Under the pieces are notes generated by a model. The model worked only from the letters and a program-made list of their open reading frames with translations. It was not told the origin of the DNA and ran no database searches. From a virus (taxonomy: Duplodnaviria; Heunggongvirae; Uroviricota; Caudoviricetes), in IMG/VR virus record IMGVR_UViG_2667527965_000004: 30,875 nucleotides of DNA; one strand, 5' to 3'. How positions within the stretch are numbered: the stretch's first letter is position 1; every line of letters starts with the position of its first letter. The position numbers and the translations under genes were made by a program. This document shows, one piece after another, positions 3,238-9,048 of the stretch.

Positions 3238-3509
3238 GTATTCGTATCGAAATTGGCGAACGTTATGTCGTTACCAGTGACAGCTTTCAGTTTATTCTCC
3301 ACGAGAAAAAGAGAGCGGAAAGCGGTAAAAACGCCGGTCAGGAATGGCTGGCGGTGGTTGGTTATTACCCGAAATTAAGCCAGCTCGTTTCCGGCCTGAT
3401 GCATCACGATATTCTGACCGGAAGCGCAAAGTCTTTTGCTGATTTAAACGCGCAGGTTGAGCAACTCAGCAAGCGTTGCTCAGAGGCTTTTGGCTCATAT
3501 GGCCGTTAA
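3234..3509 (+). CDS. Small early protein, unknown function
   Basis: 91 aa; ATG overlaps previous stop (ATGA); 3' end overlaps start of A. Confidence 0.45.
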   Translation: MSIRIEIGERYVVTSDSFQFILHEKKRAESGKNAGQEWLAVVGYYPKLSQLVSGLMHHDILTGSAKSFADLNAQVEQLSKRCSEAFGSYGR

Positions 3510-5784
3510 AGCCTCCGGGCGTTTTGTCCCTCCGTCAGCATTTGCCGCAGGCACCGGTAAGATGTTTACCGGTGCTTATGCATGGAACGCGCCACGCGAG
3601 GCTGTCGGGCGCGAAAGACCTCTTACACGTGATGAGATGCGTCAGGTGCAAGGTGTTTTATCCACGATTAACCGCCTGCCTTACTTTTTGCGCTCGCTGT
3701 TTACTTCACGCTATGACTACATCAGGCGCAATAAAAGCCCGGTGCACGGGTTTTATTTCCTCACATCCACTTTTCAGCGTCGTTTATGGCCGCGCATTGA
3801 GCGTGTGAATCAGCGCCATGAAATGAACACCGACGCGTCGATGCTGTTTCTGGCTGAGCGTGACCACTATGCGCGCCTGCCGGGAATGAATGACAAGGAG
3901 CTGAAAAAGTTTGCCGCCCGTATCTCATCGCAGCTTTTCATGATGTATGAGGAACTCAGCGATGCCTGGGTGGATGCGCATGGAGAAAAAGAATCGCTGT
4001 TTACGGATGAGGCGCAGGCTCACCTCTATGGTTATATTGCTGGCGCTGCACGTGCTTTCAATATTTCCCCTCTCTACTGGAAAAAATACCGTAAAGGGCA
4101 GATGACCACGAGGCAGGCATATTCTGCCATTGCCCGTCTGTTTAACGATGAGTGGTGGACTCATCAGCTTAAAGGCCAGCGTATGCGCTGGCATGAGGCG
4201 TTACTGATTGCTGTCGGGGAGGTCAATAAAGACCGTTCTCCTTATGCCAGTAAACATGCCATTCGTGATGTACGTGCACGCCGCCAGGCAAATCTGGAAT
4301 TTCTTAAATCGTGTGACCTTGAAAACAGGGAAACAGGCGAGCGCATCGACCTTATCAGTAAGGTGATGGGCAGTATTTCTAATCCTGAAATTCGCCGGAT
4401 GGAGCTGATGAACACCATTGCCGGTATTGAGCGTTACGCCGCCGCAGAGGGTGATGTGGGGATGTTTATCACGCTGACCGCGCCGTCAAAGTATCACCCG
4501 ACACGTCAGGTCAGAAAAGGCGAAAGTAAAACCGTCCAGCTAAATCACGGCTGGAACGATGAGGCATTTAATCCAAAGGATGCGCAGCGTTATCTCTGCC
4601 GTATCTGGAGCCTGATGCGCACGGCATTCAAGGATAATGATTTACAGGCCTACGGTTTGCGTGTCGTCGAGCCACACCACGACGGAACGCCGCACTGGCA
4701 TATGATGCTTTTTTGTAATCCACGCCAGCGTAACCAGATTATTGAAATCATGCGTCGCTACGCGCTCAAAGAGGATGGAGACGAAAGAGGAGCCGCGCGA
4801 AACCGTTTTCAGGCAAAACATCTTAACCGGGGCGGTGCTGCGGGGTATATCGCGAAATACATCTCAAAAAACATCGATGGCTATGCACTGGATGGTCAGC
4901 TCGATAACGATACCGGCAGGCCGCTGAAAGATACTGCTGCGGCTGTTACCGCATGGGCGTCAACGTGGCGCATTCCGCAATTTAAAACGGTTGGTCTGCC
5001 GACAATGGGGGCTTACCGTGAACTACGCAAATTGCCTCGCGGCGTCAGCATTGCTGATGAGTTTGACGAGCGCGTCGAGGCTGCACGCGCCGCTGCAGAC
5101 AGTGGTGATTTTGCGCTGTATATCAGCGCGCAGGGTGGGGCAAATGTTCCGCGCGATTGTCAGACTGTCAGGGTCGCCCGTAGCCCGTCGGATGACGTTA
5201 ACGAGTACGAGGAAGAGGTCGAGAGAGTGGTCGGCATTTACGCGCCGCATCTCGGCGCGCGTCATATTCATATCACCAGAACGACGGACTGGCGCATTGT
5301 GCCGAAAGTTCCGGTCGTTGAGCCTTTGACTTTAAAAAGCGGCATCGCCGCGCCTCGGAGTCCTGTCAATAACTGTGGAAAGCTCACCGGTGGTGATACT
5401 TCGTTACCGGCTCCCACACCTCCTGAACACGCCGCAGCAGTGCTAAATCTGGTTGATGACGGTGTTATCGAATGGAATGACCCGGAGGTCGTGAGGACGC
5501 TCAGGGGTGCATTAAAACACGGCCTGAAAACACCAAATCGTCAGCAAAGAAACGGAAGTCCGTTAAAACCACATGAAATAGCACCGTCGGCCAGACTGAC
5601 CCGGTCGGAACGATTGCAAATTACCCGTATCCGCGTTGACCTTGCTCAGAACGGTATCAGGCCGCAGCGATGGGAGCTTGAGGCGCTGGCGCGTGGCGCG
5701 ACCGTAAATTATGACGGGAAAAAATTCACGTATCCGGTCGCTGATGAGTGGCCGGGATTCTCAACAGTAATGGCGCGGACATAA
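3499..5784 (+). CDS. A: Replication initiation endonuclease A (rolling-circle HUH relaxase)
   Basis: 761 aa from ATG 3499 (equals P2 A length; track start 3457 is TTG); HUH-type PHWHMMLF and tyrosine pair YIAKYISK motifs. Confidence 0.9.
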   Translation: MAVKASGRFVPPSAFAAGTGKMFTGAYAWNAPREAVGRERPLTRDEMRQVQGVLSTINRLPYFLRSLFTSRYDYIRRNKSPVHGFYFLTSTFQRRLWPRIERVNQRHEMNTDASMLFLAERDHYARLPGMNDKELKKFAARISSQLFMMYEELSDAWVDAHGEKESLFTDEAQAHLYGYIAGAARAFNISPLYWKKYRKGQMTTRQAYSAIARLFNDEWWTHQLKGQRMRWHEALLIAVGEVNKDRSPYASKHAIRDVRARRQANLEFLKSCDLENRETGERIDLISKVMGSISNPEIRRMELMNTIAGIERYAAAEGDVGMFITLTAPSKYHPTRQVRKGESKTVQLNHGWNDEAFNPKDAQRYLCRIWSLMRTAFKDNDLQAYGLRVVEPHHDGTPHWHMMLFCNPRQRNQIIEIMRRYALKEDGDERGAARNRFQAKHLNRGGAAGYIAKYISKNIDGYALDGQLDNDTGRPLKDTAAAVTAWASTWRIPQFKTVGLPTMGAYRELRKLPRGVSIADEFDERVEAARAAADSGDFALYISAQGGANVPRDCQTVRVARSPSDDVNEYEEEVERVVGIYAPHLGARHIHITRTTDWRIVPKVPVVEPLTLKSGIAAPRSPVNNCGKLTGGDTSLPAPTPPEHAAAVLNLVDDGVIEWNDPEVVRTLRGALKHGLKTPNRQQRNGSPLKPHEIAPSARLTRSERLQITRIRVDLAQNGIRPQRWELEALARGATVNYDGKKFTYPVADEWPGFSTVMART

Positions 5785-6236
5785 TGACAAAGATTCACAA
5801 AGTAAAGCTGCACGCAAAATATTTCGACCTTGTGCTGGAAGGAAAGAAACGCGCAGAGTTTCGGAAAAATGACCGTAATTATGAGCGCGGAGACACGTTG
5901 ATTTTGCATGAATGGGGGCAGGGTGTGTATACGGGGCGAAAGGTTGAAGCCCGGATAACAGATGTTACTGACCTGTCAGACTGGCTGGAAGATTATGTCT
6001 TGCTAAGTATTGAGCTGCTTAATACAGGCGCATATGAGATTGTGAACTGGAAAGAACTTAGTGAGCGTGGTCTGGTATTCAGAATTAATCATGAAATTAT
6101 GCATCAGCTCGGCCTTGCTGTTATGTATGAACCAGAGACGGGGATGTCTGGCGGGGCAATGGTTGCCACGGATGGAGCATGGAACTATTCAGATGAACAG
6201 ATTGAGCGTGCAAAGCAAAACGGGTGGCTTGGATAA
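5784..6236 (+). CDS. ASCH/DUF3850-like (PUA-fold) domain protein with extra C-terminal region
   Basis: ATG 5784 overlaps A stop (TAATG); N-terminus KIHKVKLHAKYFDLVLEGKKRAEFRKNDRNYERGDTLILHEW fits the ASCH-like pattern; occupies P2 orf91 position but is longer. Confidence 0.6.
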   Translation: MTKIHKVKLHAKYFDLVLEGKKRAEFRKNDRNYERGDTLILHEWGQGVYTGRKVEARITDVTDLSDWLEDYVLLSIELLNTGAYEIVNWKELSERGLVFRINHEIMHQLGLAVMYEPETGMSGGAMVATDGAWNYSDEQIERAKQNGWLG

Positions 6237-6439
6237 TGCACAGAATACCAGGCGAGATACCGCAACATAACACTAAAAATATCAAGCTGATGGCTATTGT
6301 TCACCGTCTACAGCAGATTATGGTCAACGAAAATCTGACGCCCGACGAGTTGGTCGGGTGTGCCGAAATAGTCCGGGATAATTACGTGCGGTTTAACGAT
6401 ATAGAACAGTCTAAAATTGCACTGCTACCACGTTGTTGA
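6236..6439 (+). CDS. Small hypothetical protein, translationally coupled to the ASCH-like gene
   Basis: ATG 6236 overlaps previous stop (TAATG); 67 aa; no recognisable motif. Confidence 0.4.
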   Translation: MHRIPGEIPQHNTKNIKLMAIVHRLQQIMVNENLTPDELVGCAEIVRDNYVRFNDIEQSKIALLPRC

Positions 6440-6765
6440 TAGAAAACCCCAGCAGTACTGAAACATGCTTCCAGTGCTGCTGGAGGGAACAACGAACAGC
6501 GAGAGGTGGTAGTTGGCCATCATTTGAGTATCAGCATATGATTGGATTTATAACGGTTGGAAAGATTAATGTTGGTGAACTAATAAATTACAAATATTCA
6601 CAAGAAGATCTTATGTTACTAACATGAGTTTATGTGTAATATAGCTGTACATACCAATATCCGCTGTACCTTTGTTTTTATTTGGTTTGTCAGGTGTCAC
6701 AGGTATGGTTGGCGTATGAGAATGGTTTATTTAAATTAAATATTGATTAAGGTTGAAAGAATGTC

Positions 6766-7662
6766 ATGAATAAAAGTAAAGCAATCTCAAGAATAGAGAG
6801 AGTGTTGAGAAGATTAAAGGATGGGAGTTTCACTGATAGTGATATTGATGTTCTTTTTGTTACGGCCCGTGAGTTGCCGAGTGCGCCCAAGTGTATTTTT
6901 GAAATTGGGAGTTTTGTTGCCCATAATCATCGGAGAGATCAAGGCGAGATAAAGGATATCATGCTGAGGAATCATTTGTTATTAAGTTTAAAATTTGGAC
7001 GCGATAAGCATGCTGTTAAACCAGAGTTAAATGAATACCCGAAATACTTACCTACATTAATCAGACTGCAATTAAGAATGTTCAGTGATGAGTTTTTAAA
7101 GGAGAAGTTAAACTTAAAGGGGGGGCAGGTAATTACAGCGAGGAAGAAGCTTAATAACAAGAAATCGTATATTGTTAATGATGGTGTTTGTAAGTTAACA
7201 CCAGAAATTGGTTCCAATGAAGGGCGAATGATTAATGAAGCTTTGTCGTTACTCAATTGTTCTGACGCAATTAAGTTCGACTCTTTATTTAATGAGCTGA
7301 AAATATTGCTTCGGAAGGAGATTTCAGGGGTGGACTTGATGCCGCTTGATAATAACAGGAGAGCAATAGCAGGCATCTTACTGTGTTTGTTGAATAATAT
7401 TGATTTTTCTCTGATGCCTGAAGTCAAAGCAAAAACAGTCCTTAGTCTTAATGATGCAGATAAATCTGCAAATGTTTATGGTCAATATTATATAACACAT
7501 GAAAAAGAGCCATTCACCGACGTGGCTATCATGAGCCCAGTGTTTCAGTCGGGGTATGATGTTAGTGACCTTTTTGATGAGCATGTGACAAATGAAAATA
7601 TCGTAAATGGGGATGTCGAATTTAGTTTTGATTTGGGGAAAATAGTTGTGTCGAAATCATAG
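6766..7662 (+). CDS. AT-rich orphan protein of unknown function (candidate accessory or defence cargo)
   Basis: 298-aa ORF, visibly AT-rich with K/N/I/L-rich codon usage unlike flanking phage genes; purine-rich RBS (GGTTGAAAGAA) upstream; no Walker, HNH, NTase or RT motif found by eye. Confidence 0.7.
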   Translation: MNKSKAISRIERVLRRLKDGSFTDSDIDVLFVTARELPSAPKCIFEIGSFVAHNHRRDQGEIKDIMLRNHLLLSLKFGRDKHAVKPELNEYPKYLPTLIRLQLRMFSDEFLKEKLNLKGGQVITARKKLNNKKSYIVNDGVCKLTPEIGSNEGRMINEALSLLNCSDAIKFDSLFNELKILLRKEISGVDLMPLDNNRRAIAGILLCLLNNIDFSLMPEVKAKTVLSLNDADKSANVYGQYYITHEKEPFTDVAIMSPVFQSGYDVSDLFDEHVTNENIVNGDVEFSFDLGKIVVSKS

Positions 7663-7824
7663 TTTAGACCCAAACGAGCACGTTCCTAATTTCCGTTCAA
7701 TACATGCATTTAGTGCATGATTTTGCATGCGGCAGCGATCGTTTTTTATTGTTTATAATCGCCTGTATTGACGATGTTTTGATGTGTTATTGCAACTGCA
7801 TTAAAAGCGCTCCATGAAGCGGGC

Positions 7825-7843
7825 GGGCGAGGCGGGGAAAGCA
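7825..7843. other. cos cohesive-end site (P2-type 19-nt sequence)
   Basis: Exact string GGCGAGGCGGGGAAAGCAC, which I recall as the P2 cohesive end, in the GC-rich gap between cargo and Q. Confidence 0.55.
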
Positions 7844-7986
7844 CTGCGCGCTGGCGGTGGTGCTGATTTTATTTTTTCAGCGTCTGAGCGCGTCGTGATG
7901 GCGTTTAGATTGTTAGCCGGGGCGTTGGTGTGTCTGCGGGCTATTTTGTGCGGTGGTGAGCGTGTGAGGGCGTGATGGCGGGTTGT

Positions 7987-8008
7987 AAAAAAGCCGCCCG
8001 CAGGCGGC
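7987..8008 (-). terminator. Rho-independent terminator downstream of Q (minus strand)
   Basis: GCCGCC-CGCA-GGCGGC hairpin (7993..8008) followed on the minus strand by a U-run (A6 at 7987..7992 on plus). Confidence 0.55.
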
Positions 8009-8013
8009 GATAT

Positions 8014-9048
8014 TCAGCCGTTGTCAGTGTCCAGTGAGTAGTTTTTAAAGCGGATGACCTCCTGACCGAGCCAGCCGTTTATCTCGCGGATCCTGTCCTG
8101 TAACGGGATAAGCTCATTGCGGACAAAGACCTTTGCCACTTTCTCAATATCACCCAGCGACCCGACGTTCTCCGGCTTGCCGCCCATCAACTGAAAGGGG
8201 ATGCGGTGCGCGTCCAGCAGGTCAGCGGCGCTGGCTTTTTTGATATTAAAAAAATCGTCCTTCGTTGCCACTTCACTGAGCGGGATAATTTTAATGCCGT
8301 CGGCTTTCCCCTGCGGGGCATAGAGAAACAGATTTTTAAAGTTGTTGCGGCCTTTCGACTTGACCATGTTTTTGCGAAGCATTTCGATATCGTTGCGATC
8401 CTGCACGGCATCGGTGACGTACATGATGTATCCGGCATGTGCGCCATTTTCGTAATACTTGCGGCGGAACAGTGTGGCCGATTCATTCAGCCAGGCAGAG
8501 TTAAGGGCGCTGAGATATTCCGGCAGGCCGTACAGCTCCTGATTAATATCGGGCTCCAGCAGGTGAAATACTGAGCCGGGCGTGAAAGGTGTCGGCTCGT
8601 TGAAGGACGGCACCCACCAGTAAACATCCTCCTCCACGCCACGGCGGGTATATTTTGCCGGTGAGGTTTCCAGTCTGATGACCTTACCGGTGGTGCTGTA
8701 ACGCTTTTCCAGAAACGCATTACCGAACACCAGAAAATCCAGCACAAAGCGGCTGAAATCCTGTTGCGAAAGCCACGGATGCGGGATAAATGTCGAGGCC
8801 AGAATATTGCGTTTAACGTAAATCGGTGAGCTGTGATGCACGGCAGCACGCAGGCTTTTCGCCAGACCGGTAAAGCTGACCGGCGGCTCATACCATCTGC
8901 CGTTACTGATGCACTCGACGTAATCCAGAATGTCACGGCGGTCGAGTACCGGCACCGGCTCACCAAAGGTGAATGCCTCCATTTTCGGGGCGCTGGCGGT
9001 CATTGTTTTTGCCGCAGGTTGCGGTGTTTTCCCTTTTTTCTTGCTCAT
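8014..9048 (-). CDS. Q: Portal protein
   Basis: 344 aa, same length and position as P2 Q; operon with P. Confidence 0.88.
   Translation of the reverse strand: MSKKKGKTPQPAAKTMTASAPKMEAFTFGEPVPVLDRRDILDYVECISNGRWYEPPVSFTGLAKSLRAAVHHSSPIYVKRNILASTFIPHPWLSQQDFSRFVLDFLVFGNAFLEKRYSTTGKVIRLETSPAKYTRRGVEEDVYWWVPSFNEPTPFTPGSVFHLLEPDINQELYGLPEYLSALNSAWLNESATLFRRKYYENGAHAGYIMYVTDAVQDRNDIEMLRKNMVKSKGRNNFKNLFLYAPQGKADGIKIIPLSEVATKDDFFNIKKASAADLLDAHRIPFQLMGGKPENVGSLGDIEKVAKVFVRNELIPLQDRIREINGWLGQEVIRFKNYSLDTDNG

Follow-up and report, generated by a model that had tools for sequence, protein, structure and literature searches.

The two small genes that follow the replication gene A in this P2-like prophage of E. 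coli, here called ORF150 and ORF67, very probably form part of the phage's backbone flank and are not cargo. Our preferred explanation, to which we give a probability of roughly 0.6, is that the early (replication) operon ends with these two genes and that, together with a 75-nt element just behind them (element E), they would make up the flank that stays constant to the left of the cos-proximal cargo slot, which lies between A and Q, the portal gene, and would have the roles proposed below. The finding that the pair closes the early operon is ordinary and already catalogued. The window, i.e., the whole stretch of 30,875 nucleotides of viral DNA analysed here, is numbered from its first base, and the features discussed are collected in Table 1.

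Table 1. Positions of the features discussed, in window coordinates.
Feature	Position	Strand	Basis or remark
Gene A (replication endonuclease, 761 aa)	3499..5784	+	Context; RefSeq annotation of identical EC12 locus, 1-2286
ORF150, two-domain DUF3850/ASCH + DUF7415 protein, full-length form of P2 orf91	5784..6236	+	Pfam, phrog_1812
DUF3850/ASCH beta-barrel domain, aa 4-76, motif G20-x-K22-x-x-E25-x-R27	5793..6011	+	Pfam, AF2, Foldseek, HMM
DUF7415 domain, aa 86-128, absent from P2 orf91	6039..6167	+	Pfam 1.9e-14
ORF67, two-helix hairpin protein of the phrog_11386 family; constant gene, probable left border of the A-Q cargo hotspot	6236..6439	+	
Allele-specific 3′ end of ORF67, tail ...IEQSKIALLPRC vs usual ...PPPRRR	6402..6439	+	Megablast, tail comparison
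Element E, conserved structured non-coding	6438..6512	+	16-bp hairpin ~6447-6486; conserved tail ...TAG
298-aa orphan, cargo of this prophage	6766..7662	+	Context; low GC, 31-39%
Presumed cos cohesive-end sequence GGCGAGGCGGGGAAAGCAC, right limit of cargo slot	7817..7835	.	Context

Layout and distribution of the pair

Relatives of gene A match Phage_GPA in Pfam. The stop codon of gene A (TAA, 5782–5784) gives its last base to the ATG at 5784, so that a TAATG overlap opens ORF150, and a second TAATG, formed by the ORF150 stop (TAA, 6234–6236) and the ATG at 6236, opens ORF67, which ends at 6439. The first-pass annotation had described small genes behind A with such overlaps and both are present, the second with its 67 aa; the first, given there as 151 aa, reads 150 aa in the window, the longer form being that of relatives with ATGATG at the start, an upstream ATG that the window does not have. 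A terminator scan predicted no terminator-like site between A and ORF67. A promoter scan returned 8 sites against 5.6 ± 2.6 in shuffled sequence, i.e., no excess, and therefore gave no evidence for a separate promoter of the pair. The overlapping codons themselves suggest co-transcription of both genes with A. We hypothesize that termination–reinitiation at the two TAATG overlaps allows their translation from the Pe early transcript, in which case ORF150 and ORF67 would be made in lytic growth and not in the lysogen.

Whether the two genes are backbone or belong to a multi-gene cargo with the downstream orphan had been left open at first pass, and the distribution of the pair favors backbone. 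Among E. coli genomes, the 3′ end of gene A was found in 1683, the ORF150–ORF67 pair in 345 (all complete genomes) and the orphan in 25. The 59 IMG/VR viral loci with the pair have 25 different cargo clusters behind it. Five cargos follow it in RefSeq loci, where a near-unchanged pair stands before a DNA cytosine methyltransferase with a ParB-N-terminal-domain protein, before a DUF2971 protein and before several unrelated hypothetical proteins. In sequenced phages, the same two genes are found at 91–95% DNA identity as gp91/gp92 of WPhi, before another cargo, and in P24A7b, P22H4, vB_YpM_46/50, S164 and 12474II-V, again with other cargos; in the WPhi record, several single-base indels split the genes into ORFs of 93 aa and 64 aa. 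Both genes thus stand essentially unchanged before different cargos, which had been named beforehand as the observation that would make them backbone.

Backbone has to be understood here as a common flank variant and not as a universal core, since only about one in five of the E. coli genomes that have an A gene of P2 type also carry the pair. Nor is the pair an obligate one, because each gene is found without the other: in L-413C, the homology at ORF150 extends only up to window position 6274, so ORF67 is missing there, and many phages carry ORF67 without ORF150.

It could be argued that ORF150, ORF67 and the orphan are one three-gene cargo moving as a unit, e.g., a defence system. All 25 orphan-bearing E. 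coli genomes carry the pair directly upstream, at an identity of at least 99%; the exact 67-aa allele, ending ...ALLPRC, adjoins the orphan in 10 of the 10 places read; and the three genes are one arrangement in Table S5A of PMC9122126, where this same locus is entered as “DUF3850/ASCH + hypothetical + hypothetical”. However, this co-occurrence holds only from the orphan to the pair, as about 320 E. coli genomes carry the pair without the orphan, and the 25 cargo clusters behind the pair point the same way. The GC content, moreover, steps from 45–48% in the pair to 31–39% in the cargo, and between ORF67 and the orphan lies a gap of 326 nt that contains element E. PADLOC-DB 2.0 gave no significant match for any of the three proteins; the only one listed was PDC-M11B to ORF150 (E 0.025, 12.5 bits), and ORF67 and the orphan had none.

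The allele linkage is accounted for by recombination. In most E. coli loci, the megablast homology runs out at query 613–619, i.e., window 6396–6402, which would place near 6402 the joint at which the orphan cassette recombined on its left side. The homology break and the allele linkage together suggest that the orphan cassette brought with it the final ~12 codons of ORF67 as well as the element behind them; the tails of ORF67 in WPhi and in other sequenced P2-like phages are of the PPPRRR type, unlike that of the window. The multi-gene cargo therefore does not stand as first proposed and keeps only a weak form, in which these last codons travel with the orphan; that the three genes move as a unit is very improbable. 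The orphan itself is matched end to end by phrog_29586 and has no Pfam, PADLOC or NCBIfam match, and NCBIfam gave nothing significant for ORF150 or ORF67 either.

The limit of backbone against cargo can now be fixed in a much-mined defence hotspot. Candidate systems have been defined there as everything between gpA and gpQ (PMC9122126), and by that definition ORF150 and ORF67 are counted into each candidate system. The catalogue of PMC13586616 has thousands of P2-like prophages. We suggest that ORF150, ORF67 and element E be removed before systems are defined, with the end of the element (...TTAG) serving as a base-exact left marker.

Domains and relatives of ORF150

ORF150 consists of two domains, a minimal ASCH/DUF3850 barrel in which the G-x-K-x-x-E-x-R motif is intact and, behind it, DUF7415. 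The ASCH-like N-terminus noticed from the letters alone was confirmed by Pfam over residues 4–76, where DUF3850 (PF12961) matched at 6.4e-18 (65.2 bits, cut-off 22.9) and ASCH at 3.8e-11 (44 bits, cut-off 21.2). DUF7415 (PF24187) matched residues 86–128 with 54 bits against a cut-off of 27. The family phrog_1812 covers the protein end to end (150 of 150 positions, 3.9e-81), and homologues of 54–58% identity in Salmonella and Enterobacter have the same two domains. Like ORF67, it is a conserved coding gene, beyond what a chance ORF would show.

In the AF2 model, the ASCH domain (aa 1–85, pLDDT ~80) folds into a PUA-like beta-barrel; confidence in the DUF7415 half is low (pLDDT ~44). A Foldseek search with this model returned PDB 3IUW (E 1.5e-7, target-normalised TM-score 0.88), followed by ZmASCH and YqfB; 3IUW was also matched by HMM at 2e-13. 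This Enterococcus faecalis “activating signal cointegrator”, itself a minimal ASCH/DUF3850 protein, has 40% identity to ORF150 and an rmsd of 1.4 Å over 79 residues, but it is a single domain of 80 aa with no function assigned and without DUF7415. The octapeptide G-x-K-x-x-[E/T]-x-R is met in ORF150 by EGKKRAEFR (G20, K22, E25, R27), i.e., in its Glu (“GKER”) form; in 17 homologues, neither K22 nor R27 varies, and conservation reaches at least 90% at G20 and E25.

In Glu-type ASCH proteins, which act on ac4C, both the Lys and the Glu are essential (preprint 10.64898/2026.02.27.708502). The ASCH ac4C amidohydrolases (E. coli YqfB, T. thermophilus TthASCH and human EOLA1) share the PUA-like barrel and the octapeptide with ORF150, although the identity is only ~11%, the rmsd is 5–8 Å and DUF3850 domains are shorter. 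To our knowledge, no DUF3850 protein has a known activity. We hypothesize that ORF150 may bind, and perhaps deacylate, RNA or cytidine nucleotides in the manner of other Glu-type ASCH proteins.

The second domain is widespread in phages. A tblastn search found DUF7415 in 906 phage records, T4-like and T5-like phages included; it stands alone in phage Miller and in tandem in phage Spivey. A word-index homologue search with the DUF7415 half alone recovered close E. coli fragments only, with no new architectures.

ORF150 had been presented at first pass as an extended version of P2 orf91. It is indeed longer, by 41 aa (150 vs 109 aa; orf91, AAD03307.1, has 330 nt, and we read its name as a map position and not as a length), but the direction of the change is reversed: P2 orf91 is a truncated remnant, and the two-domain protein with the conserved small gene behind it is the commoner state among relatives that keep the gene. 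This corrects the reference view. Like ORF150, orf91 is the first gene after A, starts within the A stop codon and has 93% identity over residues 1–74; position and N-terminal domain are thus those of an orthologue, while the full-length architecture is not the same. The DNA homology between the window and P2 ends at ~6004, which is codon 74 and the end of the DUF3850 domain, and the last ~35 residues of orf91 are unrelated read-through towards tin, without DUF7415. P2 has neither ORF67 nor element E. It is reasonable to suppose that the tin–old cargo replaced everything beyond codon 74 of an ORF150-type gene.

ORF67 and the possible roles of the pair

ORF67 is a real protein, a helical hairpin under strong purifying selection. 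It matches phrog_11386 at 3.4e-39 over residues 1–60 and has 195 close homologues of 67–81 aa. The pooled dN/dS of its core is 0.15 in the ORF67 frame, whereas the two shifted frames give 1.08 and 1.84; synonymous sites are near saturation (pS 0.66–0.80) with pN at 0.07–0.12. A lack of conservation had been named as grounds for discarding the 67-aa ORF, and the opposite was found, with in-frame dN/dS ranging from 0.04 to 0.15. The AF2 model consists of two helices (core pLDDT 90–95), for which neither Foldseek against the PDB nor a profile search of PDB sequences gave a match; Pfam assigned no family to ORF67, the only listed match being Acetyltransf_15 at E 0.11, below its cut-off. ORF67 is short, lies at a recombination boundary and belongs to no Pfam family, as might be expected of a stretch that is not a gene but is conserved as DNA or RNA, e.g., as a recombination arm. 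The gap between pS and pN, shifted-frame ratios of at least 1, a reading frame and start coupling retained across genera and the confident model leave such a reading a negligible probability.

The ORF67 family is narrow and specific to P2-like phages, with only 32 representative clusters among 1.84 billion proteins, and its position is kept across Peduoviridae. Where ORF150 is missing, ORF67 still lies between A and the portal gene, and its start abuts or overlaps the stop of whichever gene precedes it (TAATG, TGATG or TAAATG in different lineages), be it a DinI/TumB-like gene, a 101-aa gene or a 71-aa gene. Two members between a replication gene and a portal gene illustrate this. In Salmonella phage PSP3, gp37 follows tumA and tumB in place of an ASCH gene such as the one before ORF67 here. 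In Escherichia phage P88, AIZ95127 (110 aa) differs from the window protein by a C-terminal ClpX C4 zinc finger (8e-18); the two genes before it are annotated “recombinase” and “chromosome partitioning protein” and are probably the partition system noted in PMC9122126. The product field of AIZ95127 reads “carboxylate-amine ligase” and its note “ATP-dependent Clp protease ATP-binding subunit ClpX”.

The ClpX C4 zinc finger (PF06689) is carried by 6 of the 32 clusters (6e-19 to 5e-11) and is limited to remote family members (P0189–P0197) and the P88 protein; fused members hold the same A...X...Q position. We conjecture that ORF67 is a small dimeric adaptor, with a partner hinted at by this finger, C-terminal in the remote relatives; the link to ClpX comes from domain fusion in relatives of ~35–45% identity. 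In the window ORF67, Pfam finds no PF06689 zinc ribbon (CxxC...CxxC), and the usual PPPRRR tail is also missing; both count against the ClpX link. The biochemical roles suggested here, an ASCH activity on RNA or cytidine for ORF150 and an adaptor function for ORF67, are tentative and on balance rather doubtful.

Alternatively, ORF150 and/or ORF67 could act early in counter-defence or in the takeover of the host, ORF150 perhaps by removing or masking an RNA modification or by sequestering a nucleotide signal, and ORF67 perhaps by jamming a ClpX-dependent host pathway. Such a function would suit small, dispensable and patchily distributed genes of an early operon, half of ORF150 and all of ORF67 being absent from P2, and in virulent T4-like and T5-like phages DUF7415 is frequent in small accessory genes, beside Nudix and NAD-dependent deacylase genes. 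PUA-like folds, in addition, read modified bases, and relatives of ORF67 have zinc-finger fusions. Neither protein, however, is similar to any characterised anti-defence protein, and the proposal overlaps with our preferred explanation, from which it differs only in whom the activity serves; we consider it unlikely. Two small overlapping genes, the second of them encoding a small helical partner, also recall a self-contained toxin–antitoxin or exclusion pair, but this is highly improbable given that each gene occurs without the other, that ORF67 follows quite different genes elsewhere and that known toxin–antitoxin and defence families gave no match.

Element E and the limits of the cargo slot

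Element E, a repeated imperfect hairpin, is strand-specific and lies just after stop codons. Its covariance model (R1) scored 71.6 bits (E 3.6e-16), its fold has an MFE of −31.9 kcal/mol (z −4.3), and compensatory base changes are seen in the hairpin. The last base of the element is the exact starting point of at least 26 different sequences downstream; cargo DNA begins directly after it, and its 3′ end reads ...GTTAG. Rfam gave for this region only a spurious mir-15 match (23.8 bits against a gathering score of 57.3). A genome-contig scan with the 16-mer GGCGGGGTTGAACAAC was too unspecific, its matches being almost all chance and from unrelated phyla, and the taxonomic range of element E refers to the fetched loci only.

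Under our preferred explanation, the hairpin would end or stabilise the upstream message, and the element would mark the exact point of cargo exchange by recombination between the left flank and the cos-proximal flank. Element E does not qualify as a classical intrinsic terminator: the hairpin is present but the consensus continues with GGGGUUGAACAAC, without a U tract, and the terminator scan was silent. REP-type gene-3′ hairpins and integron attC sites are analogies, as repeated imperfect hairpins after stops with variable genes at the 3′ end. REP-type hairpins have no sequence relation to element E. As for attC, the agreement is limited to the GTT of ...GCGTTAG: R-R-Y is not what follows GTTAG, and the element has no RYYYAAC/GTTRRRY pair; the window encodes no IntI integrase, its sole integrase being the P2-type Int (1–1011).

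ORF67 and element E could even constitute a boundary module of the P2-family defence hotspot, previously undescribed. As the last base of the element is the exact joint for at least 26 sequences, genes in the region would behave like cassettes delimited by copies of E. The element may then be a site or guide of targeted exchange, or an insulator ending the early transcript, and ORF67 may be a conserved regulator at the border, with remote relatives that carry the ClpX-type zinc finger. Taken as a whole, this interpretation is quite unlikely. Element E, with its sharp repeated junction, and the zinc-finger fusions of the ORF67 family are modest new leads, and testable ones, on cargo swapping and on the last early genes.

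Other resemblances of element E were set aside. An origin from cos was rejected, the local similarity being no better than in 204 of 1000 shuffles, and the likeness to the gpA nick site amounts to the 7-mer CGCCTCG, common to the P2 ori and on the opposite strand. The Chi-like GCTGGCGG in the 3′ arm was dropped, as this arm co-varies with the 5′ arm and the octamer is not conserved.

On the right side of the slot, the 19 nt at 7817–7835 are what we take to be the P2 cohesive end. A core cos site is common to P2 and P4 (PMC9122126); the window shares with P4-like satellites a block of 68 bp (7784–7851) that lies beside the psu and delta genes.

Two conserved genes ahead of a variable slot

A P2-like (Peduovirus) E. 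coli prophage makes up the window. Its ORFs are, in order, int, C, cox, B, orf80-83, A, a pair of small genes, a 298-aa ORF of low GC (hereafter the orphan), Q, P, O and N. The first-pass annotation placed an ASCH-like gene of 151 aa at the TAATG overlap after A; the gene and the overlap are there, although its length by sequence is 150 aa (ORF150), and the 67-aa gene (ORF67) does open at another such overlap. Strain EC12 is 100% identical to 5784-6439, and RefSeq labels its locus, in order, 'replication endonuclease', 'DUF3850 domain-containing protein' and 'hypothetical protein'.

Coordinates of the features discussed (window unless a locus is named)
Feature	Location	Strand	Remark
Gene A stop	TAA 5782-5784	+	overlapped by ATG at 5784 (TAATG)
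ORF150	ATG 5784, TAA 6234-6236	+	150 aa
ORF67	second TAATG 6234-6238, end 6439	+	67 aa
Element E	6438-6512 (75 nt)	+	conserved non-coding element; consensus GATAGAGAACGCCGCCAGTCGTGAAACTTGTTTTCAGGGCTGGCGGGGTTGAACAACGAGCGAAGCGAGGCGTTAG
Stretch after element E	6514-6628		~115 nt
Orphan	6766-7662	+	31-39% GC; phrog_29586 match
Right limit of slot	7784-7797
68-bp block	7784-7851		includes cos sequence
Presumed cos sequence	7817-7835		taken to be the P2 cohesive end
Second copies of ~76-nt element E	L004:7627-7702; L037:7519-7597; L069:6801-6876; L089:3302-3376 (fetched comparison loci)		after stop codons, A-Q region
Zinc-finger ORF67 members	L238:5980-6312 (phage P88); L090-L135 and L170-L203 at ~8001-8360; L239:2989-3309 (phage D6)

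A survey of 5426 complete E. coli genomes gave 1683 with the 3′ end of gene A, 345 with the two-gene stretch at a coverage of at least 80% and 25 with the orphan region. In RefSeq loci the pair precedes various cargos: the orphan, two unrelated hypothetical genes, a 197-aa gene, a DUF2971 gene, or a DNA cytosine methyltransferase with a ParB-N-terminal-domain protein. When 80 IMG/VR loci fetched through ORF67 and eight annotated loci fetched earlier were sampled, ORF150, ORF67 and Q were all present in 59, and the cargos of these 59 fell into 25 clusters, which speaks against the suggestion that the pair belongs to a multi-gene cargo. Its proposed co-occurrence with the orphan holds in one direction only: all 25 orphan-bearing genomes have the pair, but 345 genomes have the pair against 25 with the orphan. 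ORF150 and ORF67 are conserved hypothetical genes closing the early operon, and the orphan alone is cargo.

The exact 67-aa allele adjoins the orphan wherever its neighbourhood was read (10 of 10 places), once with the orphan split in two ORFs. Homology to most other loci (96-97% identity) stops at window ~6402, past which both the ORF67 tail (...ALLPRC vs ...PPPRRR) and element E, a structured element directly after ORF67, are present as diverged copies. Most simply, a crossover within the 3′ end of ORF67 would have brought in the orphan cassette from a P2-like phage that is more distantly related. The orphan matches no Pfam, PADLOC or NCBIfam model, and in locus L371 it is split into ORFs of 121 aa and 144 aa. 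The orphan is a candidate for a one-gene cargo and perhaps serves in defence.

The A-Q region is a published P2 defence hotspot (PMC9122126, PMC13586616). Those surveys took all genes between gpA and gpQ, and Table S5A of PMC9122126 enters the arrangement by accession, so that the locus is catalogued, without analysis. ORF150, ORF67 and the orphan gave no significant match to PADLOC models. The initial observation was correct and its meaning ordinary.

As a side observation, many RefSeq E. coli chromosomes have base 1 at prophage gene A (record position 1 in loci L003, L008 and L242), and many matches among E. coli genomes lie at record_from 2286; these assemblies were apparently rotated on the prophage 'replication' gene A in place of dnaA.

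ORF150 and P2 orf91

Domain searches, which had been recommended for both proteins, were informative: each is a full-length member of a PHROGs family (ORF150 of phrog_1812, 3.9e-81; ORF67 of phrog_11386, 3.4e-39), and Pfam assigns ORF150 residues 4-76 to DUF3850 (6.4e-18) and ASCH (3.8e-11) and residues 86-128 to a second domain, DUF7415 (1.9e-14). ORF150 is indeed longer than P2 orf91, which has 109 aa, the name 'orf91' being read as a map position and not a length. The direction of the extension is reversed, since the DNA homology shared with P2 runs out at window ~6004 (codon 74, where the DUF3850 domain ends) and the P2 tail beyond this codon is unrelated to ORF150. The two-domain form is taken to be older because Salmonella and Enterobacter have it too, at 54-58% identity; by these alignments P2 orf91 would be a remnant, left at the point where tin-old now starts.

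ORF150 has a minimal ASCH barrel as its N-terminal domain (PDB 3IUW: target-normalised TM-score 0.88, 40% identity, HMM E-value 2e-13), with an intact octapeptide, G20-x-K22-x-x-E25-x-R27, that is conserved among homologues. In archaeal ASCH members, tRNA binding is supplied by a separate C-terminal domain (preprint 10.64898/2026.02.27.708502), a case that may offer a concrete hypothesis for ORF150. Its DUF7415 half is poorly modelled (pLDDT ~44). DUF7415 is widespread, with 906 phage records by tblastn, most of them from virulent T4-like and T5-like phages; phage Miller has it as a separate 86-aa protein, and phage Spivey has two copies in tandem. Within E. coli, where ORF150 divergence is low (pS ~0.05), the ASCH half has a dN/dS of 0.21 and the DUF7415 half one of 0.42.

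ORF67 as the more constant gene

The 67-aa ORF had been considered doubtful should it lack conservation, and it is conserved: pooled dN/dS over its 56-codon core is 0.15 (53 distinct sequences), against 1.08 and 1.84 in the shifted frames. The most distant pairs give 0.03-0.09, with pS up to 0.66-0.80 and pN only 0.07-0.12. By these substitution patterns ORF67 is clearly coding. AlphaFold2 predicts two helices, residues 10-31 and 36-62 (core pLDDT 90-95).

ORF67 is also the more constant gene of the two. Some loci have a 71-aa or 101-aa gene upstream of it instead of ORF150, others a DinI/TumB-like gene, e.g., Salmonella phage PSP3 (tumA, tumB, gp37), and one has DUF7415 joined to a different N-terminal part. 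In each arrangement the ORF67 ATG overlaps or abuts the upstream stop (TAATG, TGATG or TAAATG), so translational coupling is a conserved feature. Phage L-413C, in turn, has ORF150 homology only up to window 6274 and hence no ORF67. The two genes do not form an obligate pair. In loci L079, L083 and L085-L088 and in AM157369 (P2-EC67), A is separated by a 226-aa ORF from a copy of ORF67 without its first 10 codons (in the former loci ~1.07 kb from A), so the left side of ORF67 can take insertions too. In the phage WPhi record (L001:3849-4550), several single-base indels relative to intact homologues split ORF150 and ORF67 into gp91 (93 aa) and gp92 (64 aa), through either sequencing errors or decay. 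The defective prophage of E. coli SCEC020026 (L005), with A cut to its last ~135 codons and a truncated portal gene, nevertheless keeps ORF150, ORF67 and a methyltransferase cargo intact.

ORF67 belongs to a narrow family, with 32 clusters retrieved by profile search from 1.84 billion representative proteins and 34 records, in Peduoviridae only, by tblastn of phage genomes. A ClpX-type C4 zinc finger (PF06689, 6e-19 to 5e-11, above cut-off) is present at the C-terminus in six of the 32 clusters. These fused members occupy the same position, between replication and portal genes, in most of the related distant P2-like contigs (A ~30%, Q ~45% identical) and in phage P88; one relative is located in the P1-like phage D6. 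A literature search found nothing on the family, and its ClpX-finger fusions are absent from descriptions in searchable papers.

A structured element at the cargo joints

Element E was detected by blastn-short in 76 of 88 loci (L001-L088) and occurs in 518 E. coli genomes, in one or two copies apiece; it is nearly invariant where ORF67 synonymous sites are saturated. The window copy folds at -31.9 kcal/mol (z = -4.3). Across 38 distinct copies its 16-bp hairpin is 94.7% paired, with both sides changed in six pairs, values matched by 0 of 500 shuffles and compared with 29-47% pairing in slid controls, the structure having been derived from the very sequences used to test covariation. Frequent G-U pairs, valid on the + strand only, suggest that the hairpin forms in the RNA of the early transcript; a U tract is absent and Rfam gave no match. 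A covariance model placed more copies after the DinI/TumB-like gene and after a 251-257-aa cargo gene. In PSP3 it found two strong copies, directly after tumB and after gp37, and a weak third match after gp38 (20 bits, E 0.017).

Loci L004 and L037 share 94% identity from ORF67 up to the exact last base of the second element E copy, after which the genes are unrelated, and among 51 copies 26 different 24-nt flanks begin directly after ...TTAG. The most economical reading is a message-ending or stabilising hairpin that is also the left homology arm, while the exact joints leave room for a targeted process. Such a repeated structured element, marking cassette joints to the base, is absent from descriptions in searchable papers; like the ORF67 family with its ClpX-finger fusions, it would be inexpensive to test.

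The stretch following element E is ~70% identical to six other cargo clusters, in whose loci it opens with TTGACA right after ...GTTAG; a leader or promoter of rightward cargo genes may be conserved here. On its right side the slot has a comparably sharp limit, some 20-30 nt ahead of the presumed cos sequence. The 68-bp block has matches in 2156 E. coli genomes, and in ATCC 8739 the match adjoins psu and ogr/delta-like genes, a sign of P4-like satellites with the same cos site as P2.
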